A stretch of 64,000 nucleotides of DNA, taken from IMG/VR virus record IMGVR_UViG_3300029305_004190. One strand, given 5' to 3'. The DNA is from a virus. Positions 3,943 through 42,605 of the stretch are shown here, piece after piece. A model generated the notes under the pieces. The model ran no database searches. It was given only the letters and a program-made list of their open reading frames with translations, and was not told where the DNA came from. A program made the translations under genes and the position numbers. The first letter of the stretch is position 1. Every line of letters starts with the position of its first letter.

Positions 3943-3973
3943 TCGCCGCTATAGGATTTTTGCGGCGATTTTG
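3943..3973 (+). terminator. Rho-independent terminator
   Basis: TCGCCGC-tataggattttt-GCGGCGA followed by TTTTG. Confidence 0.55.
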
Positions 3974-4192
3974 AAGAAGGACTGTAAAGCTCAAAGTACA
4001 AAATTAAAAGCTGAAACCTCAAGAATCAAAGTTCTTCAAGGTATAAAGCTAACAGCTAAAAGCATAAACACCAAACCTTTACAAAATCCAAGAGATAGGG
4101 TTATCGGGTGCATATGTGACCGGTGGGAGAACCACTTGGCTGGACGGTAGCGAGTTGTTTATATATAGCCGGTCGAAAGACCGGCACCCTAT

Positions 4193-4265
4193 GGGAGAGT
4201 GGCGCAATCGGTTAGCGCAAGAAGTAGTTTGTCTGTTGTTGGTTCGAGTCCAACCTCTCCCACCA
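4193..4265 (+). tRNA. tRNA-like gene with intact acceptor, D and T arms but no Watson-Crick anticodon stem (possible pseudo-tRNA or non-canonical tRNA)
   Basis: GGGAGAG/CTCTCCC acceptor, GCGC-AATCGGTTA-GCGC D arm, GTTGG-TTCGAGT-CCAAC T arm, ACCA 3' end; region 4220-4237 cannot form a 5-bp anticodon stem. Confidence 0.4.
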
Positions 4266-5962: not shown

Positions 5963-5989
5963 ACTTGAGAATAATGGAGGTTTTTGAAT

Positions 5990-6649
5990 ATGCCTGAGTG
6001 TTTAGACAATTTCCCGTGGCGCTCGCTGAAAGGGTGCGGCAGCATGGCTCCGGCTATGTTCAAAGTCGGTGATTATAAGAATGAACGTCTGAAAGACGGA
6101 ACTGAAGTCCAGTTCAGAATCATCGGATTCAATCACGATAAAACCATTACAGGCGACATCGTCCCGTTCACTTGGGAGATGGTTGACTGTATGCCAAATC
6201 GTTACCCGTGGAATGAGCGTGATACGACTGAGGGCTCTTGGGGCGCGACATTCCTGCGGCGTGAAATGAACCAACCGGACGGTCGAATCTTCCGATTGAT
6301 GCCCGATGAAATCGTTGAGCTGGCAGTGCCGGTCATCAAGCTGACTGCCAATACATATACCGGTGAAAACAACATCCTTGAGACTGAGGATAAGTTTTGG
6401 ATAAAGTCTGAAAAAGAGCTTTTTGGACGAAACATCCTTTCAGCACCCGGCGAAGGTCACTGGTACGAATATTACAGACAGGAAGATGTGGCTTGGGGCA
6501 AAAAGCGTAATGGTTCCAACGAGTATACCATGCTGCGTTCCCCTAGTTGCAACGACAGCACCTATTTCTGCATTGTGGACACGGACGGCATTGCGGACTT
6601 TTACTACGCAAGGAATTCCATTGGGCTCGCCCCGGCTTTCTGCTTCTAA
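5990..6649 (+). CDS. Hypothetical protein (219 aa), W/Y-rich
   Basis: ATG 9 nt after GGAGG (5976-5980); no recognisable catalytic motif. Confidence 0.6.
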   Translation: MPECLDNFPWRSLKGCGSMAPAMFKVGDYKNERLKDGTEVQFRIIGFNHDKTITGDIVPFTWEMVDCMPNRYPWNERDTTEGSWGATFLRREMNQPDGRIFRLMPDEIVELAVPVIKLTANTYTGENNILETEDKFWIKSEKELFGRNILSAPGEGHWYEYYRQEDVAWGKKRNGSNEYTMLRSPSCNDSTYFCIVDTDGIADFYYARNSIGLAPAFCF

Positions 6650-6840: not shown

Positions 6841-7242
6841 ATGGCAAGAATCACTATCGCAGGCGACGCAGTAGTCGTAACTTCCGCACTGAAGCTTGAG
6901 GACATCAAGACCATCGCAAAGTATCGCCCCAACGAGCTCATTCTCAAGGGTGGCGAGGACGGTAAGGAGCCGATTTTCGGTATCGGCGTAACTTCCGGCT
7001 GTGGTTCCATCAATGAGGTCGGCGCATCTTTCGGTCGTGAATCCCACGATGAAGACAAGCTCGCTACCATCACGATGTGCACCGGCGGCGATGTAACCGG
7101 TGATGTCAAGGAGTGGGTCGCAGACCACATCGGCGGCGCAATCATCAAGCTGAACAAGCTCGAAGAGAAGCTTCCCGCAGTTCTCGCAGAAATCGCAGAC
7201 GAAAAGGCTGCGGTTATGAGCAACATCTCCGTCGCTCAGTAA
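6841..7242 (+). CDS. Hypothetical protein (134 aa) with strong SD and structured leader, probably highly expressed
   Basis: AAAAGGAG SD; ~185-nt leader with three perfect hairpins; followed by strong terminator. Confidence 0.6.
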   Translation: MARITIAGDAVVVTSALKLEDIKTIAKYRPNELILKGGEDGKEPIFGIGVTSGCGSINEVGASFGRESHDEDKLATITMCTGGDVTGDVKEWVADHIGGAIIKLNKLEEKLPAVLAEIADEKAAVMSNISVAQ

Positions 7243-7249
7243 GAAATAT

Positions 7250-7280
7250 GGGGCGGTTCCCGCCGCCCCTCCCCTTTTCT
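7250..7280 (+). terminator. Rho-independent terminator
   Basis: GGGGCGG-ttcc-CGCCGCCCC followed by TCCCCTTTT. Confidence 0.65.
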
Positions 7281-7331: not shown

Positions 7332-7562
7332 ATGATTAAGGTAACTGTAGGTAACAACGTAAAGCGCGAATCCGTTATCATCGACGAAAACACCACCCTC
7401 CGTTCCTGCCTTGAGGCAAACGGCGTTGACTACACTCGCGGTGTTATGCATCTCGACGGTTCCTCCCTGAACCCCGGCGACCTCGACAAGACCTTCGCAA
7501 GCTTCGGTATCACTGAGAAGTGCTTCCTGCTGAACGTGGTCAAGGCGGATAACGCTGCCTGA
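7332..7562 (+). CDS. 76-aa ubiquitin-like beta-grasp protein (Ubl candidate), C-terminal tail ...KADNAA rather than GG
   Basis: AAAGGAG SD; same length as ubiquitin and aligns block-for-block by eye (IKVTVGN.. ~ IFVKTLTG..; HLDGSSLNPGDLDKTFASFGITEKCFLLNVVK ~ [29 protein letters not shown]); two intrinsic-terminator-like hairpins follow. Confidence 0.5.
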   Translation: MIKVTVGNNVKRESVIIDENTTLRSCLEANGVDYTRGVMHLDGSSLNPGDLDKTFASFGITEKCFLLNVVKADNAA

Positions 7563-7617
7563 TTCGGATGTGTGGGCGACTTCGCCCATAAATAATAACA
7601 AAGGGCACGCTCTGTCG

Positions 7618-7636
7618 AAGGGCTTGCCCTTTTTCC
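7618..7636 (+). terminator. Terminator-like hairpin with T-run (a second hairpin GGGCGA-ct-TCGCCC lies at 7574-7587)
   Basis: AAGGGC-tt-GCCCTT followed by TTTTCC. Confidence 0.5.
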
Positions 7637-7638
7637 AT

Positions 7639-7724
7639 GGGGGATTGGCGGAACTGGCAGACGCAGCGGGTTTAAGCCCCGCTGGTGTTTCACCGTATCG
7701 GTTCGACCCCGATATCCCCCACCA
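7639..7724 (+). tRNA. tRNA-Leu (anticodon TAA), type II
   Basis: GGGGGAT/ATCCCCC acceptor, GCG/CGC D stem, GCGGG-TTTAAGC-CCCGC anticodon arm, GGTG-TTT-CACC variable arm, ATCGG-TTCGACC-CCGAT T arm, A-CCA. Confidence 0.75.
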
Positions 7725-7751
7725 TAATGTATAAACAAGAGAGGTGTTTCT

Positions 7752-9236
7752 ATGTTCAAAACAAGCATTGCATCAACGCCTTTGACATCTGATGCAGCGA
7801 ACGCCTATTTCCATAATATCTATGGTGATAACTTCGGAAGCGATAACTCGTTTGTCGCTACACTGCGAGCGTTGGTGGCTCCTCGAATGAAAGAGGATGA
7901 GCACATATACCTTATGTTTGGTCAGTCGAACTACGACACAACCGCTGTAAGTAGTGCACCGACCGAAAGGGTTGTTTCAGCAATCTGCCGCAACTATGAG
8001 CTGAATGATACAAATGGTACGATTATCATTCACAGCTTCACATCCAGCGAAGAAAACAATCTCGCAAATTTCCGAGCAATCGGTGCAAAGTTCACGTCAT
8101 GTTATGACGGATACCACTGTCTCGACAAGGTTAAGGCGTTCTACCATAAGTCTTTTATCGTTGACTGTTATATCAATCCCGAACGGAAAAATGTTATCGT
8201 GTTTGTCGATAACCTCGATACGAAAAAGCTTCACTATCTGCAGGTTTCAATCTTGGCTTTCCTGCCTTGGTACTTTGACCCCGAAGCAGGTGTATCCGAG
8301 CTTGAAATGGAACTCCTTTACTCCCTCCGCGAGACAACTTCGGAAAAATACGAAAGCTGTATTGCAAAAATCGCAGAGGCTTACGACTTCAAGAGCGCAA
8401 GAGTTCGGCAGTTGCTTGCCGGTTTTGAAACTCGCTATGAGCGTATGGAATGCGATAAGGTGCGCAGAGAAATCCAGCAGTTTGACAATGAAATGAATCG
8501 TCTCAACGAACAAATCGGTGTTCTTTTGGGACGAAGAAATGATACTTGTATCAAGCTGATGGGGCTTGAACGTAAAATCGCCGAGGGTGGCGAAGATTCC
8601 GAAATTATGGAATACTTCCTCTGTAACAACAGATTGTATCTTGAGAATGTTACTGACCAAGATATGTATTTTGCTGTCAAGGATTATCTCATGTATTTCG
8701 ACCGTGAAATGGCAGAGAGAGCAATCAGCAATACGCGCAGCTTTGTATATCCGTATGACAACAATACTCATAACGGCATCACGAAAGACGGCATGAAAAA
8801 GCTCATGACAGAGATTTTTGTCAGCGAAGAACCGAGACTGAGAATCAAATTCTGTGCCGCATACCGATTTGCTCTGAATGGAAGCGTTAGTACACAGGGT
8901 GGTCACCGTTTCCCGAGTGAGTTTTCTGACTGTATGCCAAACACCCATATCGACAGATACAACTGTATGGGTAACTATCCGATGACCATCAATAAGCTTC
9001 TTGCAAACCACGATTACATAGGTGCACTTGAACAGTGCATTGCTTCGTGTAAGAGTCTCAACTGGGGTGACAGTACAGTCATGGGTTCCTTTATGGAAAA
9101 TATGTGGGGCAGTGGTCGCACAAACAATCGTTGTATCGAACTTCCCGATGGTCGAGTGGTCAAGCCTGTTGAAGCCATCAAATGGCTTGAAGAACAGGAG
9201 GCAATCTCAAATGTCAAGGAAAAAGAGGAGGAATAA
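7752..9236 (+). CDS. Large Cys-rich hypothetical protein (494 aa) inside the Ubl/JAB/E1 operon
   Basis: GAGAGG SD; central coiled-coil segment; no motif recognised by eye (E2-like HPN motif not found). Confidence 0.65.
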   Translation: MFKTSIASTPLTSDAANAYFHNIYGDNFGSDNSFVATLRALVAPRMKEDEHIYLMFGQSNYDTTAVSSAPTERVVSAICRNYELNDTNGTIIIHSFTSSEENNLANFRAIGAKFTSCYDGYHCLDKVKAFYHKSFIVDCYINPERKNVIVFVDNLDTKKLHYLQVSILAFLPWYFDPEAGVSELEMELLYSLRETTSEKYESCIAKIAEAYDFKSARVRQLLAGFETRYERMECDKVRREIQQFDNEMNRLNEQIGVLLGRRNDTCIKLMGLERKIAEGGEDSEIMEYFLCNNRLYLENVTDQDMYFAVKDYLMYFDREMAERAISNTRSFVYPYDNNTHNGITKDGMKKLMTEIFVSEEPRLRIKFCAAYRFALNGSVSTQGGHRFPSEFSDCMPNTHIDRYNCMGNYPMTINKLLANHDYIGALEQCIASCKSLNWGDSTVMGSFMENMWGSGRTNNRCIELPDGRVVKPVEAIKWLEEQEAISNVKEKEEE

Positions 9237-9243
9237 ACAGAAA

Positions 9244-10149
9244 ATGAGTAAGCCAATCAAAATGACAGAGCAGTACATGAGCGAATGCCGTGCTGACTTT
9301 GAAAAAGCATTACAGCTTACCAAGCTTGCTGATGGTAAGCTGAATTTCACCAAGGTCTTTTCCATTGCAGACAAGAAAGCAACTGTTTACTTCACGGGCG
9401 AGGCATGGACGAAGATGGTCATGCTCATTAAGGAGTTTGACAAGGAAGTAGCATGGCATGGTGTTGCACGTCGTGTCGAAGACGAGTCCAAGGACGAGTA
9501 TATCATCTCCGATATCATGGTATATCCGCAGACAGTTACCGGTGCATCAGTTGAAATGGATACTGAAAAGTATGCAGTGTGGCTGATGGATAACGCCGAT
9601 GATGAGCGTTTCGATAACATCCATATGCAGGGTCACTCCCATGTCAATATGGGAACCACTCCTTCAAGCGTTGACCTCAATCATCAGGAAGAAATCCTGA
9701 ATATGCTTGGTGATGAGGATTTCTATATCTTCATGATATGGAACAAGTCTTTCACAAGCACAAACAAGGTGTATGACCTGAAGAAAAACATCCTGTTTGA
9801 GGACAGAGATATCACCGTAAAGATTATTGGCGGTGTTGAAGACCTTGATGCCTTTGTCAAGGCGGCAAAAGACATGGTAAAAACCAAAGCATATGTCACC
9901 CCATCCTACAATGCCAATGGTGGATATCAGTACAACAAGCCCGCCGGAACTCCGTACAATCCGGTATCTACCACAACCACTCCCAAGTCCGATAAGTCCG
10001 ATGACAAGGAAAATAAGAAGAGTGGTAAAAAGGACAAGCCCAGAACAAAAATCGAGGGCACATCCGGCAAAAATGCTTGTCAGCAAAGCATCTTCGATAT
10101 GTATGATGATGCGGACGACCCGTACAGTTCATATTACAGGGGGTATTAA
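9244..10149 (+). CDS. JAB/MPN+ (JAMM) metalloprotease-domain protein with low-complexity basic C-terminal tail
   Basis: HMQGHSHVNMGTTPSSVD = H-x-H-x7-S-x2-D JAMM zinc motif with upstream Glu residues; GAGGAGG SD; alternative in-frame ATG at 9211. Confidence 0.65.
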   Translation: MSKPIKMTEQYMSECRADFEKALQLTKLADGKLNFTKVFSIADKKATVYFTGEAWTKMVMLIKEFDKEVAWHGVARRVEDESKDEYIISDIMVYPQTVTGASVEMDTEKYAVWLMDNADDERFDNIHMQGHSHVNMGTTPSSVDLNHQEEILNMLGDEDFYIFMIWNKSFTSTNKVYDLKKNILFEDRDITVKIIGGVEDLDAFVKAAKDMVKTKAYVTPSYNANGGYQYNKPAGTPYNPVSTTTTPKSDKSDDKENKKSGKKDKPRTKIEGTSGKNACQQSIFDMYDDADDPYSSYYRGY

Positions 10150-10152
10150 GAT

Positions 10153-10824
10153 ATGGATTTATCCAAAAGCTACGAATATTTTCAGCCTGAAAAGCAGGAC
10201 GACCGCATCCACATCATCGGATGCGGTTCCGTCGGCTCTACAGTCGCATATATGCTGGCACGTACCGGCGTAACCAATTTCACTCTGTGGGATTTCGACA
10301 TTGTCGAACCTCACAACCTCGCAAATCAGATGTTCCGTCAGAAAGATATCCATAAGCCCAAGGTCGAGGCGCTGCTTGATATTATCTGCGAAATCAATCC
10401 CGATATCGCAGAATGTGCAAAGCTCAAACCCGAGGGGTGGAAAGGACAGCAGCTTTCCGGTTATGTGTTCCTTTGCGTAGACAACATCGACCTGCGCAGA
10501 GAAATCGTTGAAAAGCATTTCGATAATCCGTATGTCAAGGCAATGTTCGATTTCAGAACTCGTCTTGAAGATGCACAGCATTATGCTGCTGACTGGTCAG
10601 ACTATAAGATGAAAAAAGATTTCCTTAACTCCATGAATTTCTCTCACGACGAAGCCAAGGAAGAAACTCCTGTGTCAGCGTGCAATGTAACGCTGTCGGT
10701 ATGCCCCACTGTCCTTGTAATCTGCGCAAGAGGTGTGGCGAACTTCATGAATTTCTGGAACGGCAAAGGAATCAAGAAGCTTGTTCTCGACGATGCGTTC
10801 AAGTTCGTCTGTGACGCATTCTAA
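10153..10824 (+). CDS. E1-like adenylyltransferase (ThiF/MoeB/ubiquitin-activating family), 223 aa
   Basis: IIGCGSVGSTVAYMLARTGV Rossmann GxGxxG motif, DFDIVEPHNLANQ (ThiF DxDxxExSNLNRQ-like), LCVDNID; translationally coupled to the JAB gene. Confidence 0.75.
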   Translation: MDLSKSYEYFQPEKQDDRIHIIGCGSVGSTVAYMLARTGVTNFTLWDFDIVEPHNLANQMFRQKDIHKPKVEALLDIICEINPDIAECAKLKPEGWKGQQLSGYVFLCVDNIDLRREIVEKHFDNPYVKAMFDFRTRLEDAQHYAADWSDYKMKKDFLNSMNFSHDEAKEETPVSACNVTLSVCPTVLVICARGVANFMNFWNGKGIKKLVLDDAFKFVCDAF

Positions 10825-10859
10825 AAACAATTCAAAAAAGATGAAAGGAGGTGTGTGCC

Positions 10860-11663
10860 GTGGATGTAAAGATAAGCGACCTTAAAATCGGCGCACAACT
10901 GATACTGGGGAAATATGGTGTCAGAAATAACATTCCTTTCCCGGTTATGTGGCTTAAATGCACTCCAAACAGTGATTTTATAACGCAATCAGCGGTCGAT
11001 TATCTGCCTTTTGATGCAAATGAGCCTGATAATGATGAGTTCAGAGGATATGGAAACCCAAATTACGGATTATCCAATCTCTTGGCATTCATGAATAGTG
11101 CCGATGAGTCATGGTATCGACCGACGCATTCGACGGATACGCCTCCCGACATGATGCATACCACACGGTCATCCCAGTATCAATCACACTATGGTTTTCT
11201 GTATCACTTTGAAGAGTACGAGATTGAAAGCCTTGTGAAGACAACTGTTGAGGTGTCGGGCGAACGTGTCACTTCTGCGATTCGTTTACCATCGAGTGAG
11301 GAACTTTCGGGAGCACAACGATTCGAATTGTTCCAGCGAAAAGGAATCCGAGCTAAAGGCACTGAGGATATGATTGCCAATCGCCTCGGGCATAATTTCG
11401 ATTACAATTCATTCATTCCGGTTTGGGTGCGTAACAAAAGTGTGCACTTTGTCAAGAGCGCATTGTGCCTGAGCAGAAATTGTAGTCTGGATACGGTATC
11501 ACCTCGGAACAGTTCGGGATTGCGTCCTGTTTGTACAATCAATCCTGATACGCCAGTGATTCTCGGCGAAGATGGATACTACTACATAAAACCCCGTCCC
11601 GTACAGCGAAATGTCTATACAGACGAGGAGCTTTTTGAACTCTTAGGTTTGGCGCAGCCTTAA
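10860..11663 (+). CDS. Hypothetical protein (approx. 268 aa)
   Basis: GTG 8 nt after GGAGG (alternative GTG at 10851); no recognisable motif. Confidence 0.55.
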   Translation: MDVKISDLKIGAQLILGKYGVRNNIPFPVMWLKCTPNSDFITQSAVDYLPFDANEPDNDEFRGYGNPNYGLSNLLAFMNSADESWYRPTHSTDTPPDMMHTTRSSQYQSHYGFLYHFEEYEIESLVKTTVEVSGERVTSAIRLPSSEELSGAQRFELFQRKGIRAKGTEDMIANRLGHNFDYNSFIPVWVRNKSVHFVKSALCLSRNCSLDTVSPRNSSGLRPVCTINPDTPVILGEDGYYYIKPRPVQRNVYTDEELFELLGLAQP

Positions 11664-11664
11664 T

Positions 11665-12016
11665 TGCGCCGAAGCTGTAACGCATTTTCCCTCTGGGGAG
11701 CTTTACGCCAAAGGCTAAAGTAACACATTGCTGGAGAAGATATACACCGCCTCCCTGAAAGGAGGAGAAGGCGCCACGAGAAGTCGGCGAGCCAATCGCC
11801 GGATTGCGGTCGTCTTGACATTTGAATATCACATATACATTTCTTTGTCAAGCCACTTTCCACACTTTTCCACATCACAATCGGTACATTTGGATTACTT
11901 TTCTCGAAAAGACTCCGAAATCACCGTCAGCCCGTGCCTCAGAACTCGAACGAAGAGTCTGGGCAGAAAGCTGCACTTTTACAAAGGTTACAGCCTCTAA
12001 TTTTGGATAGGAGGTA
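11665..12016 (+). ncRNA. Putative structured non-coding RNA upstream of the reverse transcriptase (candidate retron msr/msd-like template RNA)
   Basis: 352 nt with no ORF; several perfect hairpins (CGGCGA-gccaa-TCGCCG; CTTGACA-25nt-TGTCAAG; CTTTTC-tc-GAAAAG); imperfect inverted repeat gaagctgtaacg (11671-11682) / ggttacagcctc (11986-11997) resembling retron a1/a2 boundaries. Confidence 0.3.
11701..11739 (+). repeat. Copy 1 of a ~40-nt paralogous motif (ctttacgcc-aaaggctaaagtaacacattgctggagaag), followed by a GC-rich hairpin region
   Basis: About 80% identical to copies at 13215-13253 and 13488-13528, all in + orientation. Confidence 0.55.
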
Positions 12017-13159
12017 ATGAATATGATTTATATCACAGTAAAACAATCTCCGATATATCATCAAATGACTATCGAAGAACTCCTTATGCAGGATTTCACT
12101 GCTCCTGCAGTTATAAATCCGAATTTGACAAACACAAAAACATACGAAGTGGAGTATGTTAGCGAAAGATTCATGCGCAGACTTGATGTGGATATGCTTA
12201 TTGCAAAGCTCGTCCAGTTCAATCAGTCGGTTGAATCGCTGCGCCAACAGAAACGCAGCGACCTGTATGAAACATTCTATATTCCTAAAAAGTCAGGTGG
12301 TCTTAGAAGAATCGACGCACCCAAAGCTGAACTTATGGATGCGTTGCGTCGGCTCAAGACCATCTTGGAAGAAGATTTCCATGTTCTCTATCATACATCA
12401 GCATTTGCCTATGTAAAAAAGCGTTGTACAGTTGATGCAGTTAAGCGCCACCAAGCCAACAACAGTAAGTGGTTTGGCAAGCTCGACCTCCACGATTTCT
12501 TTGGAAGCACCACTTTGGATTTCGCTATGTCTATGCTTTCAAAAATCTTCCCTATCAGCGAAGTGGTTAAGGTGGAGACAGGCAGAAATGCATTGCAATG
12601 CGCGCTCGAACTTGCTTTCCTTAATGGCGGACTTCCGCAGGGGACTCCCATTTCACCGCTCATCACAAATGTTATGATGATTCCGGTTGATTTCAAGTTG
12701 GCAAATACCTTGAGAGAGTTTGAACAGCAGAAATTTGTGTACACCAGATATGCGGATGACTTTATCATTTCGTCCAAATATGACTTTGATGTACATAAGG
12801 TCGAAGAACTTGTTGTTTCAACTCTCAAGGATTTCAATGCTCCATTTTCAATCAACGCTTCTAAAACAAGATATGGCTCATCTGCAGGACGAAATTGGAA
12901 TCTCGGTGTAATGCTGAATAAAGACAACGAGATTACAGTTGGTCACAAAAAGAAACACCAGCTTCAGTCTATGATGTTCAACTATATCACCGATAAACGT
13001 AAGGGCATCGAGTGGAGTCGTGAAGACATCATGGTAATGCAGGGACTGCATAGCTATTATCGCATGGTTGAAGAAACAGTGATTGATGCAATCGTAAAAC
13101 ATATCAATGAAAAGATGGGCGTAGATGTATTGCGCCTTATCAAAGAAGATTTAAGATAA
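12017..13159 (+). CDS. Reverse transcriptase, retron-type (RT-only, 380 aa)
   Basis: FYIPKKSGGLRRIDAP (RT motif 1/2), LDLHDFFGST (motif 4), GLPQGTPISPL (motif 5), YTRYADDFII (YxDD); C-terminal region aligns by eye with retron Ec86 RT around the VTG region (here NLGVMLN) and downstream (IMVMQGLHSYYRMVE ~ HVRGWLSFILSVD); GGAGG SD. Confidence 0.85.
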   Translation: MNMIYITVKQSPIYHQMTIEELLMQDFTAPAVINPNLTNTKTYEVEYVSERFMRRLDVDMLIAKLVQFNQSVESLRQQKRSDLYETFYIPKKSGGLRRIDAPKAELMDALRRLKTILEEDFHVLYHTSAFAYVKKRCTVDAVKRHQANNSKWFGKLDLHDFFGSTTLDFAMSMLSKIFPISEVVKVETGRNALQCALELAFLNGGLPQGTPISPLITNVMMIPVDFKLANTLREFEQQKFVYTRYADDFIISSKYDFDVHKVEELVVSTLKDFNAPFSINASKTRYGSSAGRNWNLGVMLNKDNEITVGHKKKHQLQSMMFNYITDKRKGIEWSREDIMVMQGLHSYYRMVEETVIDAIVKHINEKMGVDVLRLIKEDLR

Positions 13160-13747: not shown

Positions 13748-14434
13748 ATGATATATGTAACCGGTGATATCCACGCACACATCGACATCGGGAAGTTAAA
13801 TACACAGAGATTTCCCCAACAAAAATCATTGACTAAATCGGACTATCTCATCGTATGCGGTGATTTTGGACTGGTATGGGATAACTCCAAAAGTGACCTG
13901 TATTGGCGAGATTGGCTGTCAGATAAACCATTTACCACATTGTGGGTGGATGGAAACCATGAGAACTTTGAACTGTTATATCAGTTCCCGCTTGAAGATA
14001 AATTCGGCGGAAAGGTTCGTGAAATCGCACCCAGCATATATCATTTGGATAGAGGACAAGTCCTCACCATTGACAATAAGACGTTCTTTGTTATGGGCGG
14101 TGCTGCTTCGCATGACAAAGAATATCGCAAGGAACATATATCTTGGTGGAAAGATGAGTTGCCAACCGTCGCAGAGATGGAACGAGGTATCAAAGCACTT
14201 GAAGCCAATAACTGGACAGTTGATTTCGTTATTTCACATTGCGCTCCGCGCTCTGTCCAGACAATGATTGCCAGTTGGTATGAAAGTGACCCATTGGTCA
14301 GCTTCTTTGAACGAGTTCGAACAGACCTTAATTTTAAGAAGTGGTTCTTTGGTCACTATCATGTTGATAAACAGCTTAACGAGCAGTTTATTGCACTGTA
14401 TAACAATATTATTCCTCTCGATACAGTTTGTTGA
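13748..14434 (+). CDS. Calcineurin-like metallophosphoesterase
   Basis: GDIHAH, CGDFG, GNHE motifs in canonical order. Confidence 0.8.
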   Translation: MIYVTGDIHAHIDIGKLNTQRFPQQKSLTKSDYLIVCGDFGLVWDNSKSDLYWRDWLSDKPFTTLWVDGNHENFELLYQFPLEDKFGGKVREIAPSIYHLDRGQVLTIDNKTFFVMGGAASHDKEYRKEHISWWKDELPTVAEMERGIKALEANNWTVDFVISHCAPRSVQTMIASWYESDPLVSFFERVRTDLNFKKWFFGHYHVDKQLNEQFIALYNNIIPLDTVC

Positions 14435-14836: not shown

Positions 14837-14931
14837 TGGGGTATCGCCAAGCGGTAAGGCATCAGACTTTGACTCTGACAAGAGCGGTGTAATGCCCTCG
14901 CTCGCCGGTTCGAATCCGGCTACCCCAGCCA
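14837..14931 (+). tRNA. 95-nt tRNA with anticodon TTG (Gln) but an unusually long (~24 nt) variable arm
   Basis: TGGGGTA/TACCCCA acceptor, GCC-AAGCGGTAA-GGC D arm, TCAGA-CTTTGAC-TCTGA anticodon arm, variable arm GAGCG-12nt-CGCTC, GCCGG-TTCGAAT-CCGGC T arm, G-CCA. Confidence 0.55.
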
Positions 14932-14957: not shown

Positions 14958-15515
14958 ATGAAACCTTATGATGTAGGCTTAATATGTGGACGATTCCAGA
15001 CTTTTCATAAAGGACATGAGAAGTTGGTGGAAACAGGCTTGATGCTCTGTGACCGTCTTCTCATTCTCATCGGAAGCTCTCAGGAATGTGGTACAGAACG
15101 TAATCCATTAAATATCAATACAAGAACCAAGATGCTGAAGATGGTATATGGTGATGACCCAAACATTATGATATATGGTCTCCCTGACCTGTCAAATGAA
15201 AATGATATCCGTCCTGAATGGGGACGTTATTTGCTTGCCAACGCAGACCGATACATCTATAAGAATCCCGATGTCATGATTTATGGCAACGATGAGAGTA
15301 GAAGCGCTTGGTTTGCAAAAGAAGATTTGAAATATACAACAGAACTTATCATCAATAGAAGCGAGCTTCCTATCTCCGCGACTATGTTAAGAAAATACAT
15401 GGTTGAGGATAACCGCAAGGCTTGGATGGAGCTTGTGAATCCAAAGCTTCATAAGATGTATGATGAACTTCGCCGTGAACTCATGACAGTTGAATTCTAT
15501 CAACAAATGTCATAG
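14958..15515 (+). CDS. nadM: Nicotinamide/nicotinate mononucleotide adenylyltransferase (NMNAT, NadM/NadR-type cytidylyltransferase fold)
   Basis: ICGRFQTFHKGHEKLV (HxGH nucleotidyltransferase motif), 185 aa, C-terminal ISATMLR; GGAA SD. Confidence 0.8.
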   Translation: MKPYDVGLICGRFQTFHKGHEKLVETGLMLCDRLLILIGSSQECGTERNPLNINTRTKMLKMVYGDDPNIMIYGLPDLSNENDIRPEWGRYLLANADRYIYKNPDVMIYGNDESRSAWFAKEDLKYTTELIINRSELPISATMLRKYMVEDNRKAWMELVNPKLHKMYDELRRELMTVEFYQQMS

Positions 15516-16453: not shown

Positions 16454-16942
16454 ATGCTTTTATATCACGGAACACCGAACATTTTTAGCGAACCGTCTCT
16501 CGCAAAGTGTAAGCCGCACCGAGATTTCGGATGCGGCTTTTATCTTGCCCAAAATTTTCAAGACGCTTTACCGCTCGCAATCAAGCATTCACGCATCGGA
16601 TATGTATATACCTATGTGCTCAAAGACACTGACGACCTCAACGTCATCACTTTGGATGGATATTCCGATGAGTGGCTTGAATTAGTTGTGCGGTCAAGGC
16701 TCGGCTGCCCTCCAAATGCCGATTTGGTAATCGGGAATACAGCAGGAGGCGGCGCAAACCTTAAAGATAAGTTCACTAAGCTGAGGAATAGTGATGCATC
16801 GGTTAAAGAAGTAATCAACCTCATGCGAGATGAGCTGACAAAAACAAGCCTTGGAATTCAGTATTGTTTTCTGACTCCGAAGGCTTTATCAAAACTTCAA
16901 AAAATCAATGGTGAAATGTTTGAAAGGGAGGCAATAAGATGA
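16454..16942 (+). CDS. Hypothetical protein (162 aa) with N-terminal LYHGT...GFY motif (possibly ADP-ribosyltransferase-like H-Y-E fold; unverified)
   Basis: AAGGAG SD; motif order YHGT / GCGFY / later acidic residues resembles the H-Y-[ED] ART signature but cannot be confirmed by eye. Confidence 0.5.
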   Translation: MLLYHGTPNIFSEPSLAKCKPHRDFGCGFYLAQNFQDALPLAIKHSRIGYVYTYVLKDTDDLNVITLDGYSDEWLELVVRSRLGCPPNADLVIGNTAGGGANLKDKFTKLRNSDASVKEVINLMRDELTKTSLGIQYCFLTPKALSKLQKINGEMFEREAIR

Positions 16943-17771: not shown

Positions 17772-17927
17772 AATGATAGAAAAGAATGTGAAAAAGCAGG
17801 AAGCAAAACGCAGGCGTAATTTCTGGACTTGTGCTCGCCCTGTTACTCAAATCGTCCCAAATAAAAAGGCTTACAATCGTAAGCGTGCAAAAGATACAAT
17901 AAATAAGAAAGGTGGAGGATTCGAATG
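17772..17927 (+). CDS. Small basic protein (51 aa), not in supplied ORF track
   Basis: ATG preceded by AACGGAGGTGAG SD; MIEKNVKKQEAKRRRNFWTCARPVTQIVPNKKAYNRKRAKDTINKKGGGFE; stop overlaps start of next gene. Confidence 0.3.
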
Positions 17928-18479
17928 AATAAGGTTCTTGTTGTTGTCGATATGCAGAAAGACTTCGTGGATGGAGCGCTTGGCAGCAAGGAGGCAGTTG
18001 CAATCGTTCCAAAAGTGGTTGAGAAAATCAATGGATTTGAGGGGCTTTTTGCGGTAACGCATGACACTCATACCAACGCTTATCTCGATACGCAGGAAGG
18101 AAAGAATCTGCCGGTAGTTCACTGTGTCGAACAGAGCGACGGTTGGCAGTTGACACCCCCTGTATACGATGCGCTGAACAATCGCTTTAACGACGGAGTT
18201 TTGCCGCAGTTTTTCTACAAGCCTACATTTGGCTCCGTCGAGTTAGCTGACTGGCTGCTCAACGTGAACAAAAAGACTGCCGTTGACGAAGTCGTTCTCA
18301 TCGGTTTATGTACCGATATTTGCGTTATCTCAAACGCAATGCTTATCAAGGCATTTTTACCCGAGGTCAAGGTAACAGTGGATGCGGCGTGCTGCGCCGG
18401 TGTCACTCCTGAAAGCCACAACAATGCACTGGCTGCAATGAAGATGTGCCAGATTAACATCGAAAACTGGGAGGGCTAA
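17925..18479 (+). CDS. pncA: Isochorismatase-family cysteine hydrolase, probable nicotinamidase (PncA-like)
   Basis: VVVDMQKDF N-terminal motif, catalytic Cys context LIGLCTDICV, 184 aa; GGAGG SD. Confidence 0.75.
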   Translation: MNKVLVVVDMQKDFVDGALGSKEAVAIVPKVVEKINGFEGLFAVTHDTHTNAYLDTQEGKNLPVVHCVEQSDGWQLTPPVYDALNNRFNDGVLPQFFYKPTFGSVELADWLLNVNKKTAVDEVVLIGLCTDICVISNAMLIKAFLPEVKVTVDAACCAGVTPESHNNALAAMKMCQINIENWEG

Positions 18480-18480
18480 T

Positions 18481-19284
18481 ATGATTTCTGTTAACAATCA
18501 GCCTATCGACTTTACTTCGTTTCCCGATGGAACAACATCGTTTCGTTATGAGCCGCAGGAAGATTCCGATTTTACAATCGAATGGCGGTATGACAGCGAT
18601 AAAGAGTGTATCCTGCTGTGGTATCTTACCAAGCACATCAGGCAGTGTTACCTGAATGCCAATATCACTCTCGTTCTTCCGTATATCCCCAATGCCAGAA
18701 TGGACAGGGTTAAAAACAAGGACGAAGTATTCACGCTGAAATACTTTGCAGAAATCATCAACATCCTGCACTTCAATGAAGTTTATGTGTGCGACCCACA
18801 CTCCAGCGTCTCAACAGCTCTTCTGGATAGAGTCAAGGTAATCGACGCCAAGGAAAATATCGAAGAAGTTCTTCGAATTCTCGATAGCAATCAGAAGAAA
18901 GATATCCTTCTTTGCTATCCTGACGAAGGTGCTGCAAAGCGCTATTCAGAACAGCTTAACGCCGAGTATGTCTTCTGCATTAAGCACCGCGACTGGCGAA
19001 CCGGAAAGATACAGAGGTTGGAGCTCACGTCCCCCGAAACAGTTAAGGGCAGAAATATTCTTATCGTTGATGATATCTGTTCACGCGGCGGCACGTTCAC
19101 TTTTACCGCACAGGCATTGAAAGATGCAGGTGCAAAAGAGGTTTTCCTGTACGTTACACACTGCGAAAACACTATCGAAAAGGGTTCAGTTCTCACTGAT
19201 GGGCTGATTTCTCATGTGTTTACCACGAGCAGTATTTACCGTGGAAATCATGCTAATGTAACTGTATTCAAAGGGGGATATTGA
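18481..19284 (+). CDS. Ribose-phosphate pyrophosphokinase (PRPP synthetase)-like protein; candidate ADP-ribose pyrophosphate synthetase (Adps) of a phage NAD+ reconstitution pathway
   Basis: Type I PRTase PRPP-binding loop ILIVDDICSRGGTF in C-terminal half, Prs-like two-domain length (267 aa); coupled to pncA-like gene. Confidence 0.7.
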   Translation: MISVNNQPIDFTSFPDGTTSFRYEPQEDSDFTIEWRYDSDKECILLWYLTKHIRQCYLNANITLVLPYIPNARMDRVKNKDEVFTLKYFAEIINILHFNEVYVCDPHSSVSTALLDRVKVIDAKENIEEVLRILDSNQKKDILLCYPDEGAAKRYSEQLNAEYVFCIKHRDWRTGKIQRLELTSPETVKGRNILIVDDICSRGGTFTFTAQALKDAGAKEVFLYVTHCENTIEKGSVLTDGLISHVFTTSSIYRGNHANVTVFKGGY

Positions 19285-19706: not shown

Positions 19707-20912
19707 ATGATTGAGTTGCAAGGCAAGTATGCAACTGCGAAGGTGTTCACCGATGTGGTTGATAATGAATCAATCTCACAGGTAATCAACCTTTTGAATC
19801 AACCCTACATAGAGGGCAGCAAAGTTCGTATGATGCCGGACATCCATGCTGGAGCTGGATGCACCATCGGCACCACTATGACAATCAGTGATAAGATTTG
19901 CCCGAATCTTGTTGGCGTTGATATCGGATGCGGAATGGAAACCATCCGCATCAAGGAAACTTTCATCGAGCCGCAGAAGCTGGATAAAGTTATCCGTTCA
20001 GAAATTCCATCCGGTTTTGAAATCCGTAAGAATCCGCACCGTTTCGCTAAAGGCATTGATTTATCTGCATTGTATTGCGCCAAGAAGATTAAGCTCGACC
20101 GAGCATATAACAGCATTGGCACACTTGGTGGAGGTAACCACTTTATCGAAGCGAACAAAGACGAAGATGGTCATATCTACATCGTAGTTCACTCCGGTAG
20201 TCGCCATCTCGGTTTGGAGATTGCTAATCTGTATCAGGAGGCGGCGTATGCTTCACTCACCTCTTACAGCAAGGATGAAATCGAAAAGATTATCGAGGAA
20301 CTGAAGGCTGCGGGGCGGCAGAAAGAAATTCAGAATGTTCTGAAAAACTTGAAAGCCAAGCATTCTCCGATTCCGAAACCTCTTGCTTATGTTGAGGGAG
20401 AACTGTTCGAGCAGTATCTGCACGATATGCGCATTGCTCAACAGTACGCCAACCTCAACAGAAAAGCAATGATGGACACTATCGTGAAAGCGATGGGTTT
20501 CCACGTTGAAGAACAGTTTACCACAATTCATAACTACATTGATGTGGAAAATATGATTCTGCGCAAGGGAGCTGTATCGGCTCAGGCTGGCGAACGCCTG
20601 CTGATTCCTATCAATATGCGTGACGGTAGTTTGGTGTGCACTGGTAAAGGCAACGAGGATTGGAACTGTTCCGCACCTCACGGTGCCGGTCGGTTAATGA
20701 GCCGAAGCGAGGCAAAGCAAACCTTCACTGTTTCTGAGTTCAAGAAACAGATGGACGGTATCTACACCACTTCTGTTGGACGAAGCACACTCGATGAATG
20801 CCCGATGGCATATAAGAATATGGAAGATATCGTGAAAAACGTAGAACCAACTGTCACGATTGATTCCGTTATCAAGCCTATCTACAACTTCAAGGCGGGT
20901 GATGAAGAATGA
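19707..20912 (+). CDS. rtcB: RtcB-family RNA 3'-phosphate ligase
   Basis: VGVDIGCGM, GGGNHFIE, VHSGSRHLG, HNYIDVEN, CSAPHGAGR motifs in RtcB order; AAGGAGGG SD. Confidence 0.9.
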   Translation: MIELQGKYATAKVFTDVVDNESISQVINLLNQPYIEGSKVRMMPDIHAGAGCTIGTTMTISDKICPNLVGVDIGCGMETIRIKETFIEPQKLDKVIRSEIPSGFEIRKNPHRFAKGIDLSALYCAKKIKLDRAYNSIGTLGGGNHFIEANKDEDGHIYIVVHSGSRHLGLEIANLYQEAAYASLTSYSKDEIEKIIEELKAAGRQKEIQNVLKNLKAKHSPIPKPLAYVEGELFEQYLHDMRIAQQYANLNRKAMMDTIVKAMGFHVEEQFTTIHNYIDVENMILRKGAVSAQAGERLLIPINMRDGSLVCTGKGNEDWNCSAPHGAGRLMSRSEAKQTFTVSEFKKQMDGIYTTSVGRSTLDECPMAYKNMEDIVKNVEPTVTIDSVIKPIYNFKAGDEE

Positions 20913-21157: not shown

Positions 21158-22672
21158 ATGATTCAATACAATCCACTTTTGTGTCTGGACTTCTACAAGA
21201 CTGCTCATGCGGAACAGTACCCGCAGAGCTTGACCAAGATGGTTTCTTACTACACTCCTCGTATGAGCCGACTGGCTGATACGGAAAAGGTAACTCTGTT
21301 CGGATTGCAGGCATTCATTCAGGAGTATCTTGTCGATGCGTTCAATGAGAACTTTTTTGGTAAGCCCTACCCGAAGGTTCTTGAGGAGTACAAACGTGTC
21401 CTCGGTGCAACAATCGGTACGACTGGTGTCGGCGAAAAGCGCATCGAAAAACTTTACAACCTTGGCTATCTCCCCCTGAAGATTCGTGCGGTGCCTGAGG
21501 GTACACGAACCAATATCAAGGTTCCGCAAATTGAAATTTCCAATACACACCCCGACTTCGTATGGCTTGTCAACAGTATCGAAACGATGTTGTCCAGTAC
21601 AATGTGGCACACGCAGGTTTCCGCAGAAGTTGGCTACAGATACCGTCAAATCGTCAATGAATATGCAGATGAAACCTGTGATGACAGCGTTGCTCGTGCA
21701 AGACTTCTTGGCGATTTTTCAATGCGTGGTCAGGAAAGTGTTGAGAGCGCAACAAAGAGTTCTGCGGCATTCTGCTTGAGCTTCCTCAACACGGCAACAG
21801 TCCCTGCAATTCTGTGGCTGGAAGACAATTACGATTGTGACTGTGAAAAGGAGCCCGTTGCCTTTGGCGCTCTTTCCACAGAGCACAGTGTTATGTGTTC
21901 CAACTATGCTGTAGATGGTGATGAGATTACACAGATTCGAAGACTTCTGACAAGCATCTATCCTCACCAGAATTTCTCGATGGTCAGCGACAGCTACGAT
22001 TACTGGAATCTGGTTGACAATCTTTTGCCACAGCTCAAGGACGAAATCCTTGCTCACGATGGTTTCATTTCCATTCGCGGAGACAGTGGTGACCCTGTCG
22101 ATGTTGTTACCCAGACAGTATTTAAGCTGTGGGATATCTTCGGCGGTACCGTAAACAGCAAGGGGTATAAAGTTCTCGACCCTCACGTCAAAGCCATCTA
22201 TGGCGATAGCATTACACCACAGAGATGCGAGGCAATCTATAAGATTCTAAAAGAGAACGGCTTCGCAATCAACAATGTTTCTCTTGGCGTTGGTTCATTC
22301 TCAATGCAGTGCCTTGAAACCATTACAATGGAGCATATGGGTAACTGTGCGATGGGTGTCAGAACTCATTATTCACCGTATACTCGTGACACGTTCGGCA
22401 TTGCGGTTAAAGCTACTTATGCCGAAGACGAGAACGGCAATCCCATCATGATTTTCAAGAACCCCAAGACCGACAGCGGAAACTTCAAGAAGTCGCAGCG
22501 TGGTTGTTGCCGTGTATATAAGACAGATAATGGATATGCGTATGAGGACGGCTTAACTTGGGCAGAAGCTCAGGAAGAGAACGAACTGATTACGGTATTT
22601 GAGAACGGTGAATTTGTCAAGCGCTACACGCTGAACGAAGTTCGCCAGAATCTCCATGGGGGTAATTTCTGA
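21158..22672 (+). CDS. nadV: Nicotinamide phosphoribosyltransferase family protein (NAMPT/NadV, or the homologous Namat)
   Basis: N-terminal NPLLCLDFYKTAHAEQYP (NAMPT D-x-YK-x-H-x-x-QYP signature), 504 aa typical NAMPT length, GDS/ GVGS phosphoribosyltransferase segments; GAGG SD. Confidence 0.85.
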   Translation: MIQYNPLLCLDFYKTAHAEQYPQSLTKMVSYYTPRMSRLADTEKVTLFGLQAFIQEYLVDAFNENFFGKPYPKVLEEYKRVLGATIGTTGVGEKRIEKLYNLGYLPLKIRAVPEGTRTNIKVPQIEISNTHPDFVWLVNSIETMLSSTMWHTQVSAEVGYRYRQIVNEYADETCDDSVARARLLGDFSMRGQESVESATKSSAAFCLSFLNTATVPAILWLEDNYDCDCEKEPVAFGALSTEHSVMCSNYAVDGDEITQIRRLLTSIYPHQNFSMVSDSYDYWNLVDNLLPQLKDEILAHDGFISIRGDSGDPVDVVTQTVFKLWDIFGGTVNSKGYKVLDPHVKAIYGDSITPQRCEAIYKILKENGFAINNVSLGVGSFSMQCLETITMEHMGNCAMGVRTHYSPYTRDTFGIAVKATYAEDENGNPIMIFKNPKTDSGNFKKSQRGCCRVYKTDNGYAYEDGLTWAEAQEENELITVFENGEFVKRYTLNEVRQNLHGGNF

Positions 22673-27824: not shown

Positions 27825-28907
27825 ATGCGTAAATTAGCGTCAATCAGACAGATTGCCAATATCCGTCCAATTCCCGGTGCCGACCGAATTGTTGTGGCAC
27901 AGGTTGACGGTTGGGAATGTGTCGTTCAAAAAGATGAATTCCATGTAGGCGACCATGTCGTTTATGTCGAAGTCGATTCGGTAATGCCTGAACGTCCCGA
28001 GTTCGAGTTTTTGCGTGACCGAAAGTTCCGAGTGAGAACCATTAAGCTTCGTGGTCAAGTCAGCCAAGGATTGGTTCTTCCTCTTTCAATTCTTCCCGAG
28101 GGCGATTACTCCTTAGAGGATGATGTTACGGAGTTACTTGGTGTTACCAAGTACGACCCGGAAGCACAGCAGGAGGCGATGCTGCTTCAGAAACAGCCTG
28201 CTCCTCCCAAGAATGCTCTCATTCGATTCCTGATGCGATTCAAGTGGTACCGCAAGCTCTTTATGAAATCCAAACGCAAGGGCGGATTTCCTGAGTGGAT
28301 TACTAAGACGGACGAGACTCGCATTCAGAATCTGACCACACTTTTCAACCATGAACGTGACAAGGGAACGAAATTTTCAGTCACTGAAAAGGTGGATGGT
28401 CAGTCAGCTACATATTATCTTCGTAAAATCTCCAAGAGAAAATATGAGTTCGGCGTATGCAGTAGAAATATCTACCTTGGTACACCGGATAACAGTTCCT
28501 ACTGGACGGTTGCAAAACAGTATGACATCGAGAAAGCGCTCAAGAAGCTCATCGGTGATAATAATACCATTGTAATGCAGGGCGAAATCTGCGGCACTGG
28601 AATCCAAGGAAACAAGTACCACATCAATGGCTACGAGCTGTTTGTTTTCAATCTGATTTTCCCCGACCGTAAGTGTACAACCGCCGAAATTGCAGAACTT
28701 TGCGCCCCCCTCGGACTCAAGACAGTACCTATTCTGGAAGAAGAAAAGGTGCTGCCGCAGACCATTGCCGAAATGGTGGAGTATTCAAAGGACAACTCTG
28801 TTGTGCGTAAAGAGCAGAAGCGAGAGGGTGTTGTGGTTCGCAACATCAGAAACAATATCAGCTTTAAGGTAATCAATCCTGATTTCCTTTTAGCGGAAAA
28901 GGACTAA
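27825..28907 (+). CDS. Putative RNA ligase (covalent nucleotidyltransferase, Rnl-like)
   Basis: KVDGQS lysine-adenylate motif I (KxDG) mid-protein, later EGVVV and K-rich motif V-like region; N-terminal OB-like segment. Confidence 0.55.
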   Translation: MRKLASIRQIANIRPIPGADRIVVAQVDGWECVVQKDEFHVGDHVVYVEVDSVMPERPEFEFLRDRKFRVRTIKLRGQVSQGLVLPLSILPEGDYSLEDDVTELLGVTKYDPEAQQEAMLLQKQPAPPKNALIRFLMRFKWYRKLFMKSKRKGGFPEWITKTDETRIQNLTTLFNHERDKGTKFSVTEKVDGQSATYYLRKISKRKYEFGVCSRNIYLGTPDNSSYWTVAKQYDIEKALKKLIGDNNTIVMQGEICGTGIQGNKYHINGYELFVFNLIFPDRKCTTAEIAELCAPLGLKTVPILEEEKVLPQTIAEMVEYSKDNSVVRKEQKREGVVVRNIRNNISFKVINPDFLLAEKD

Positions 28908-42588: not shown

Positions 42589-42605
42589 CAAAGGAGATGA
42601 ACAGC

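Follow-up and report, generated by a model that had tools for sequence, protein, structure and literature searches.

The DNA read here is a 64,000-nucleotide (nt) window of a viral sequence, IMG/VR record IMGVR_UViG_3300029305_004190; the window is the whole stretch that was analysed, and all positions follow its numbering. On its plus strand lies a group of genes for a ubiquitin-like protein (Ubl), a JAB-type protease, an E1-type activating enzyme and a candidate E2, which we read as a phage-encoded Ubl protein-conjugation cassette. We think it rather probable that this cassette performs the functions known from the Bil and Bub systems, with parts built from different families. We regard as firm the fold or family of each of the Ubl, JAB and E1 proteins, their conserved motifs, the precursor forms of the modifier and the conserved gene set. 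The cassette differs from Bil, Bub, type II CBASS, PRTRC and the sulfur-carrier trios, and it is best read as a phage-borne variant of prokaryotic Ubl conjugation.

An initial annotation of this DNA had proposed five tightly packed genes, for the Ubl, a 494-amino-acid (aa) protein, the JAB protein, the E1 and a 270-aa protein, and all five open reading frames (ORFs) were found on the plus strand where it had placed them. Only 7, 3 and 26 nt separate the last four, which are indeed closely spaced. The Ubl gene stands apart, 189 nt upstream, with a tRNA-Leu(TAA) gene in the gap. The locus is laid out as follows:

6841–7242, plus strand: 133-aa partner protein (g133), a conserved core gene; true start MARITIAGD
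7332–7562, plus strand: Ubl, 76 aa, beta-grasp
7639–7724, plus strand: tRNA-Leu(TAA) gene, called by ARAGORN and Rfam, between the Ubl and 494-aa genes
7752–9236, plus strand: 494-aa protein (p494), putative E2 with a three-part architecture
9244–10149, plus strand: JAB/JAMM (MPN+) metalloprotease, 301 aa; reading frame open from 9022
10153–10824, plus strand: ThiF/MoeB/UBA5-type E1, 223 aa, single-domain
10851–11663, plus strand: DUF6273-family protein, 270 aa, GTG start; optional accessory
11674–11994, plus strand: retron-type structured non-coding RNA (ncRNA; msr/msd-like), with a1/a2 covariation and conserved ends
12017–13159, plus strand: retron-type reverse transcriptase (RT), 380 aa, matched by NCBIfam, PADLOC and Pfam RVT_1

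A gene set conserved in relatives

Relatives comprised 16 close IMG/VR loci, 20 contigs of metagenome-assembled genomes (MAGs) and one GenBank phage in which p494 is 25-70% identical, and 80 more IMG/VR loci reached through the E1. Genes were counted in the 66 loci with full 7-kb flanks. All 66 carry g133, p494, JAB, E1 and RT, and 65 carry the Ubl; the 270-aa gene is present in 31 and a metallophosphoesterase gene in 26. Among the five genes first proposed as a unit, this check of co-occurrence keeps the Ubl, p494, JAB and E1. It makes the 270-aa gene optional, as this gene is also absent from the distant relative L017 and many others, and it adds g133, a core member by its presence in every locus, and the RT with its ncRNA, which had been left out. 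Several loci have unrelated genes between JAB and E1, and L040 has the RT itself at that place.

The relatives' contigs, all of mammalian gut origin, represent a single syntenic phage lineage, whose hosts, judged by MAG binning, would be Oscillospiraceae, Acutalibacteraceae, Ruminococcus and other Clostridia. No near-identical DNA was found among GenBank phages. The cassette is abundant: at least 523 IMG/VR stretches were counted, and clustering gave at least 1500 protein clusters for Ubl and JAB (90% identity) and 2048 for the E2-like domain (50% identity).

The 270-aa protein belongs to the DUF6273 family (8 of 9 members match Pfam, best E 1.1e-7) and was rejected as an E2 or E3, being an optional DUF6273 protein. 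It also matches a PHROG (2e-10) whose label is Hoc-like head decoration. Another DUF6273 gene is found at 5984-6649, so that the two flank the cassette; they occur in 34 (5984-6649) and 31 (270-aa gene) of the 66 relatives, and pairwise BLASTP between them is insignificant. Both look like movable accessory genes.

The modifier and its precursor forms

The 76-aa protein has the beta-grasp fold of Ubl modifiers, and its assignment as a Ubl, made in the initial annotation, can be held with confidence. Across close relatives it is 96-100% identical in amino acids and 83-86% identical in nucleotides, while neighbouring genes are 42-94% identical. By these comparisons the ORFs of the cassette are real genes under selection, and the Ubl is under purifying selection of the kind that acts on ubiquitin. 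Its sequence is its own: the Ubl profile found no match among PDB sequences, PADLOC had no match for it, and it resembles neither BilA nor any other known Ubl in sequence.

The protein had been described as ending in Ala-Ala, which is literally so. The conserved terminus is an invariant K-x-D-N-A (K-A-D-N-A in the window) followed by zero or more variable residues, and the last Ala is such an extension. In relatives the extension is absent or reads A, AA, S, G, R, LN, HQ, NVK or LAA; mostly it has 0-3 residues, occasionally up to 8. More distant Ubls read KADGG|C, KADGA|RC, KADGA|RK, KADGA|AI and KADSA|AI, with GG, GA or SA replacing NA. Because GG, GA or SA occupy the same two positions and variable tails follow, Asn-Ala stands in the usual place of Gly-Gly. 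Thus, we predict that the functional end of the Ubl is Asn-Ala75 and that Ala76 is a one-residue propeptide.

A variable extension or a fusion partner after the conserved terminus marks a Ubl precursor, and both forms occur here. In 11 of the 66 loci (10 distinct sequences) the Ubl and g133 form a single in-frame ORF in which g133 follows directly after K-A-D-N-A. The junction reads ...VVKADNA|A-K-I-K-V-A-G..., with variants KADNA|A(K/V/Y)I, and the partner's start Met has become Ala. As a single-ORF fusion, this is a Rosetta-stone link between Ubl and g133 and a natural precursor that needs a release cut exactly after Asn-Ala. The partner itself has invariant residues that include Ser15 and Lys27, and no invariant Cys or His. 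It found no match in Pfam, PDB, PHROG or PADLOC, a Pfam scan of every member of its alignment gave no recurrent family, and it shows neither E2 features (no S-x-H, no Cys) nor E2 matches.

Some variations on this pair deserve mention. In L018 (9120-9831 and 17269-17980), and also in L019 and L020, a pair of a 131-aa partner and a 75-aa Ubl is duplicated with identical proteins ~8 kb apart; these three contigs are related to an Acutalibacter muris-labelled protein. L031 carries at 3958-4194, ~3 kb upstream of the regular Ubl, a divergent second paralogue with 39% identity, which lacks the K-A-D-N-A tail and ends ...QEPGEEVPT. In the window, GC-rich hairpins lie at 7250-7269 and 7575-7636, directly 3' of the 133-aa gene and of the Ubl gene. 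Possibly they act as terminators or attenuators, isolating the Ubl gene as its own highly expressed unit. A consensus scan for promoters and terminators gave no more sites than shuffled sequence and did not call these hairpins on the plus strand; because of this we note them without a claim. Finally, the tRNA-Leu gene is found at the same spot in 6 of 11 relatives scanned and is missing from it in the other five.

The JAB protease and the E1

The JAB protein carries E68, H131, H133, S141 and D144, invariant in 40 homologues, which make up the E ... H-x-H-x7-S-x2-D signature of JAMM proteases. The intact H-x-H-x7-S-x2-D zinc motif attributed to it earlier is confirmed by this invariance and by the alignment of the segment with Rpn11. 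Matches of the window protein to known families are weak, with E 0.0025-0.02 for Rpn11 (HSH..S..D aligned) and 0.0021 for the PADLOC JAB model. Pfam Prok-JAB is matched by 24 of the 40 homologues, at best with E 0.0013, below the gathering score, and the window protein itself has no Pfam match. We predict that this protease trims the Ubl precursor and also deconjugates. Its C-terminal third (9900-10149) is a low-complexity tail rich in Lys, Asp and Glu. Homologues share in it a conserved K-P-R-T-[RK]-I-G-A-G-W-x-G motif, which is degenerate in the window (KPRTKIEGTSG), and the end of the tail is acidic and aromatic.

The E1 matches Pfam ThiF with E 2.2e-22 and 79.8 bits, against a cut-off of 28.1, so that the ThiF/MoeB-type enzyme first called at this place is indeed one. 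In the PDB its Rossmann half matches MoeB (3.2e-10), ThiF, Uba1, UBA5, MccB (5e-6), PaaA (1e-4) and Cap2. Invariant in 14 divergent relatives are the GxGxxG loop (G23/G25/G28), D47, K70 (MoeB K86), D110 (MoeB D130), R115 and a TPVSAC motif that contains Cys177. The marks of a ThiF-type Rossmann domain, namely a score above the Pfam threshold, GxGxxG, the phosphate-binding Lys and the Mg-binding Asp, are thus all present. The arginine of the NLxRQ motif (MoeB R73) is missing, its place being taken by an invariant Asn58 in the 14 relatives. This loss is shared with gp76 of crAss001 and the E1 of phage PhiXhv-15, and the Cys is also kept in distant phage E1s. The enzyme had been thought unusually minimal; at 223 aa, compared with 249-251 aa for MoeB and ThiF chains, it is not, and its oddity is the lost arginine.

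A candidate E2

The AlphaFold2 (AF2) model of p494 (predicted local distance difference test 88.7, predicted template modelling score 0.48) divides the protein into an alpha/beta domain (1-222, MogA/MoaB-like), a long helix (225-278) and a C-terminal domain (284-494). In the model, the last of these consists of a helix, a beta-meander, a loop and several helices, an arrangement that resembles UBC/RWD domains. Across 18 sequences, down to 25% identity, the sole invariant Cys/His pair is His399-x5-Cys405, in the motif [PT]-[NQ]-x-H-x5-C. It sits in a loop between the strand 379-381 and the helix 409-418, after the meander, where E2 active sites sit. A candidate catalytic Cys after the meander with a His nearby is what one looks for in an E2. 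The protein had been listed as Cys-rich and otherwise unassigned, and this UBC/RWD-like tail with its invariant pair was overlooked; the other Cys residues are not conserved, so a zinc site is unlikely.

Searches by similarity came back empty. Foldseek with the model found no match in the PDB below E 0.3, hhalign of the family with E. aridi BilB gave no match (probability 0.3%), and PADLOC had no match for p494. A Pfam scan of every member of the C-domain alignment found no recurrent family. In a profile search of a representative library, the C-domain always occupied the same C-terminal position in proteins of mostly ~460-540 aa, and no informative domain fusions were found there. Taken with the model, a UBC/RWD fold for the C-domain is likely, and p494 is the probable E2, with its catalytic role deduced from the position of the Cys.

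A retron-type element next door

Among NCBIfam models the RT, which has a YADD motif, best matches the retron St85 family (1e-50), where its 172.7 bits fall short of the cut-off of 235; it also matches PADLOC RT_II-A (6.4e-47) and Pfam RVT_1. It adjoins the cassette in all 66 relatives and also in L017, a relative at 25% identity. The 354-nt spacer 5' of the RT holds an ncRNA of ~320 nt whose conserved 5' and 3' elements pair with each other:

11674–11681: a1, GCTGTAAC, followed by the invariant G11682
11699–11721: conserved ncRNA hairpin
11987–11994: a2, GTTACAGC

In 15 variants the inner 7 pairs of a1/a2 are paired in 100%, and in 10 of 12 pairs both partners have changed. The covariation score is 0.449 vs 0.245 for shuffled alignments, is reached by 0 of 500 shuffles and collapses when the register is slid. 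The ncRNA of the window folds with a minimum free energy of -101.2 kcal/mol (z -4.41) and is closed by a1/a2. Because an unbiased search for the longest helix did no better than shuffles, the case for the a1/a2 helix is built on homologous position and covariation. The ncRNA matches no Rfam family. As in retrons such as type II-A / St85, we find a retron-type RT, an ncRNA upstream of it, closure by a1/a2 inverted repeats and a G after a1. Unlike known retrons, the element has an RT that scores below the family cut-off and no Rfam msr, and it lies in a phage beside a Ubl cassette, not beside a known retron effector.

Comparison with known systems

Bil operons are ordered Ubl-E2-JAB-E1, and the E1 of Bil, BilD, has inactive and active adenylation domains and a mobile CYS domain (10.1101/2023.09.26.559546). 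The cassette has the four functions of Bil (BilABCD, type I/II) in the same order, Ubl-p494-JAB-E1, with a tRNA gene inserted after the Ubl. It departs from Bil in that it is phage-encoded, its E1 is one 223-aa adenylation domain in place of the IAD-AAD-CYS architecture, its E2-like domain is the tail of a 494-aa protein, its Ubl ends in Asn-Ala and not in Gly, and neither the PADLOC models nor BilB recognise it as Bil by sequence. Tested with PADLOC, membership in Bil or CBASS was rejected, since only the Rossmann core of the E1 and, weakly, the JAB protein were matched.

In Bub, the BubAB Ubl-E2 fusion is cut by the JAB domain of BubC (10.1101/2024.11.21.623953). Like Bub type I (6E.1 / DUF6527), the cassette has a minimal ThiF/UBA5-like E1 with a JAB immediately 5', and a Ubl that can be an N-terminal fusion to a partner and would be freed at its conserved C-terminus. 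Unlike Bub type I, JAB and E1 are separate genes 3 nt apart, the E1 has Cys177 where BubCD uses Tyr/oxyester chemistry, and the fused partner, g133, is without E2 features and is fused in just 11 of 66 relatives. Among the neighbouring genes scanned, no Pfam match to the DUF6527 (BubE) serine protease was found. In its design, the Ubl-g133 fusion parallels eukaryotic ubiquitin-fusion precursors.

With type II CBASS (Cap2/Cap3) the cassette shares a JAB protein and an E1 whose Rossmann core (residues 15-85) matches Cap2-type 'E1-E2' models (PADLOC 7e-19). It differs in having no CD-NTase or effector, an E1 and an E2 that are not fused, and a dedicated Ubl, whereas CBASS conjugates the CD-NTase itself. 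A PRTRC cassette was ruled out as well: only PRTRC_ThiF was hit (E 1.1e-4, 21.6 bits vs a cut-off of 144.75), and the other proteins had no match. So was the Ubl/JAB pair of lambda-type tail assembly, as an NlpC/P60 domain was not detected and the genes around the cassette are those of replication, RNA repair, NAD metabolism and tRNAs. The trios of sulfur-carrier biosynthesis (MoaD/MoeB, ThiS/ThiF, CysO/MoeZ/Mec+, QbsE/QbsC/QbsD) resemble the cassette in having a beta-grasp carrier and a single-domain E1, and some of them also have a JAMM protease for trimming the tail. The cassette departs from them in lacking a Gly-Gly terminus and a sulfurtransferase partner, in including an E2/RWD-like protein and in being phage-borne.

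The nearest counterparts of the E1 are in other phages, where the crAss001 and Xanthomonas phage genes are annotated 'thiamine biosynthesis protein'. In crAss001 (NC_049977.1; gp75-gp78 region), gp77, a Prok-JAB-like protein with HSHNNM..S..D, adjoins gp76 (ThiF) in the replication block. In the Xanthomonas jumbo phage PhiXhv-15 (L041, 1775-6530), a 141-aa protein ending AIAKASGG and an 892-aa protein precede a 227-aa ThiF. Both E1s belong to the same subfamily as the one in the window, with the Arg-less N-x-x-[NG]-Q, the conserved Cys, D-x-R and NF-x-NF. They differ in being 23-32% identical and in having no detectable homologue of p494, g133 or RT beside them; no RT lies within 5 kb of these E1s. 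Profiles of JAB, p494 and Ubl aligned by hhalign with crAss001 gp77 and gp78 and with the 892-aa and 141-aa proteins of PhiXhv-15 yielded a weak match of the JAB motif to gp77 (E 0.0021, probability 13%) and nothing else. The crAss001 and PhiXhv-15 ThiF regions are probably related phage Ubl modules. Full-text literature searches, incomplete in coverage and so absence of evidence only, returned no description of a phage-encoded E1/E2/JAB/Ubl cassette or of a link between retrons and Ubls.

A proposed pathway and its rivals

How would such a cassette work? We envision that the Ubl is made as a precursor, in the forms seen in sequence, carrying a short tail, which here is Ala76, or, in some of the relatives, fused to g133. 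The JAB protease would cut after the conserved Asn-Ala and expose Ala75. The E1, presumably homodimeric and ThiF/UBA5-like, would adenylate the carboxylate of Ala75 and form a thioester on Cys177 of the crossover loop, from which the Ubl would pass to Cys405 in the UBC/RWD-like C-domain of p494. The N-terminal domain and long helix of p494 could serve dimerisation or the choice of targets. The Ubl would finally be attached to target lysines, candidate targets being g133, host defence proteins and phage proteins, and JAB could reverse the mark.

Several points weigh against this pathway. Co-occurrence is weak proof of functional coupling, because the full cassettes all come from one syntenic lineage. 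The evidence for the E2 is modest: as Foldseek against the PDB, Pfam and the BilB alignment were all negative, the fold of p494 can be called only likely and its catalysis deduced. Adenylation by the E1 is not assured, because the equivalent of MoeB R73 is missing, and Cys177 was placed in the crossover loop by eye, against ThiF C184 and MoeB C187. A closer match of the E1 to MoeB or ThiF outside conjugation had been named beforehand as grounds for doubt; the best sequence matches are in fact the sulfur-carrier activators MoeB and ThiF, and the sulfurtransferase or synthase partner that would complete that picture was not seen among the neighbouring genes scanned. The window Ubl, which ends ...K-A-D-N-A-A, also lacks the C-terminal Gly of Ubl modifiers and has Asn-Ala in its stead, and a Gly terminus is held to be obligatory for E1 chemistry in the words quoted from Hor et al.

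One rival view is that the Ubl is a sulfur carrier of the MoaD/ThiS type, with g133 as its synthase (as in MoaD-MoaE) and JAB freeing its C-terminus (as Mec+ does for CysO and QbsD for QbsE), so that a cofactor, a modified nucleotide or a metabolite would be produced and no protein conjugated. The resemblances to MoeB/ThiF, MoaD and MogA speak for this, and still we think it unlikely. Among the neighbouring genes scanned there is no rhodanese, cysteine desulfurase, ThiG or MoaA/C/E-type gene, and a profile of g133 matched neither MoaE nor any other synthase in PDB or Pfam. The MoeB/ThiF matches span the Rossmann half only (residues 12-120), and a UBC/RWD-like domain with an invariant His/Cys pair has no role in sulfur transfer. 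Extreme, ubiquitin-like conservation suggests many protein partners, and the known sulfur carriers all end in Gly-Gly, where this Ubl has Asn-Ala. A different chemistry, of the MccB/PaaA type, is very improbable. Here a ThiF-like enzyme would modify the Asn-containing tail, by succinimide formation or nucleotidylation, and yield a modified protein or peptide and no conjugate. MccB acts on a C-terminal Asn, the penultimate Asn is conserved here, and MccB and PaaA are among the PDB matches of the E1. Against this, relatives carry Gly-Gly, Gly-Ala or Ser-Ala in place of Asn-Ala, so the Asn is not essential. The substrate is moreover a folded 75-aa beta-grasp domain, not a short peptide, and the E1 is without the N-terminal peptide-clamp domain of MccB, because it starts 15 residues before the Rossmann loop.

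Two further explanations concern the biological logic of the cassette. Retrons need neighbouring effector genes, and the Ubl cassette could be the effector arm of a phage-borne retron, whose RT and ncRNA/msDNA would sense a competing phage or a host nuclease and control conjugation, as a superinfection exclusion system or a counter-defence switch. This is biochemically compatible with the conjugation pathway and differs from it in purpose. Its appeal lies in the retron-type RT and covarying a1/a2 ncRNA that adjoin the cassette wherever relatives were counted and in L017, and in the RT placed between JAB and E1 in L040; there is also no alternative conserved effector, because the metallophosphoesterase is found in only 26 of 66 relatives. 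We nevertheless give this arrangement a small chance, as the loci all belong to one syntenic lineage, the related E1s of crAss001 (with JAB) and of Xanthomonas phages have no RT nearby, and the literature, as far as it was covered, does not combine 'retron' with ThiF, JAB or ubiquitin-like. The cassette might instead interfere purely with host Ubl systems, JAB stripping host marks (tail tagging by Bil, cGAS priming in CBASS) and the phage Ubl serving as a decoy for host E1/E2 or inhibiting them. That bacteria use Ubl systems against phages is known (10.1101/2023.09.26.559546; 10.1101/2024.11.21.623953), and the cassette lies in an island of counter-defence-type functions, with NAMPT, nicotinamidase, Prs-like, NMNAT-like, RtcB, RNA ligase and CCA-adding enzyme genes and 12 tRNAs. 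This seems quite improbable to us. A decoy needs no conserved E1 with intact ATP-site residues and Cys, no E2-like His/Cys protein and no processing site, and the phage Ubl is not similar in sequence to BilA or to other Ubls that are known. Conjugation by the cassette's own enzymes therefore remains the reading we prefer.

What would phage-run conjugation mean? So far, prokaryotic Ubl conjugation has been characterised as a bacterial weapon against phages (type II CBASS, Bil and probably Bub), and here the same logic would be found in a virus, with a modifier conserved as strongly as ubiquitin. If the pathway holds, E1/E2 chemistry tolerates a terminus other than Gly, and the cleavable fusion is a natural parallel to eukaryotic ubiquitin-fusion precursors. 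It raises the question of which proteins phages ubiquitinate. Because Lys71 sits directly before the tail, tryptic digestion should leave A-D-N-A attached to the modified lysines. Probable relatives are also brought to light, in the ThiF/JAB pairs that crAss-like phages carry and in the related ThiF genes of jumbo phages, and a retron-type element emerges as a constant companion of the cassette in this lineage (66 of 66). A bolder proposal, doubtful at present, is that a true ubiquitination-like cascade run by the phage, with its Asn-Ala terminus, Arg-less E1 and cleavable fusion precursor, is functionally wired to the adjacent retron. If so, the phage would tag host immune or takeover targets under retron control, or the locus would be a new phage-borne exclusion system.

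The genomic neighbourhood

The window is phage-like, with nearly all ORFs on the plus strand, 12 tRNA genes, a DnaB-type helicase, a 1071-aa DNA polymerase and an integrase-like gene. A DNA ligase gene also lies in the block around the cassette, together with the following:

13748–14434: metallophosphoesterase
14958–15515: NMNAT-like/cytidylyltransferase
17925–18479: isochorismatase/nicotinamidase
18481–19284: Prs-like phosphoribosyltransferase
19707–20912: RtcB ligase
21158–22672: NAMPT
27825–28907: RNA ligase
42543–43628: nucleotidyltransferase
43618–44982: CCA-adding enzyme

The NAD genes look like a phage pathway for NAD+ salvage or reconstitution, of the kind used against NAD-depleting defences, and the RNA-repair genes (metallophosphoesterase, RtcB ligase, RNA ligase, nucleotidyltransferase and CCA-adding enzyme), interleaved with tRNA genes, suggest that anticodon or tRNA nucleases are countered. 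With NAD-salvage, RNA-repair and tRNA genes around it, the cassette may serve host takeover or counter-defence, and these neighbours agree with its earlier placement in an anti-defence region.

Among the tRNA genes, ARAGORN called an odd one with a two-base 'anticodon' (ag) at 4193-4265 and an unusually long (95-nt) tRNA-Gln(TTG) at 14837-14931. The tRNA cluster is followed directly by the gene for a DUF3990 protein (Pfam 5e-23), at 16454-16942.

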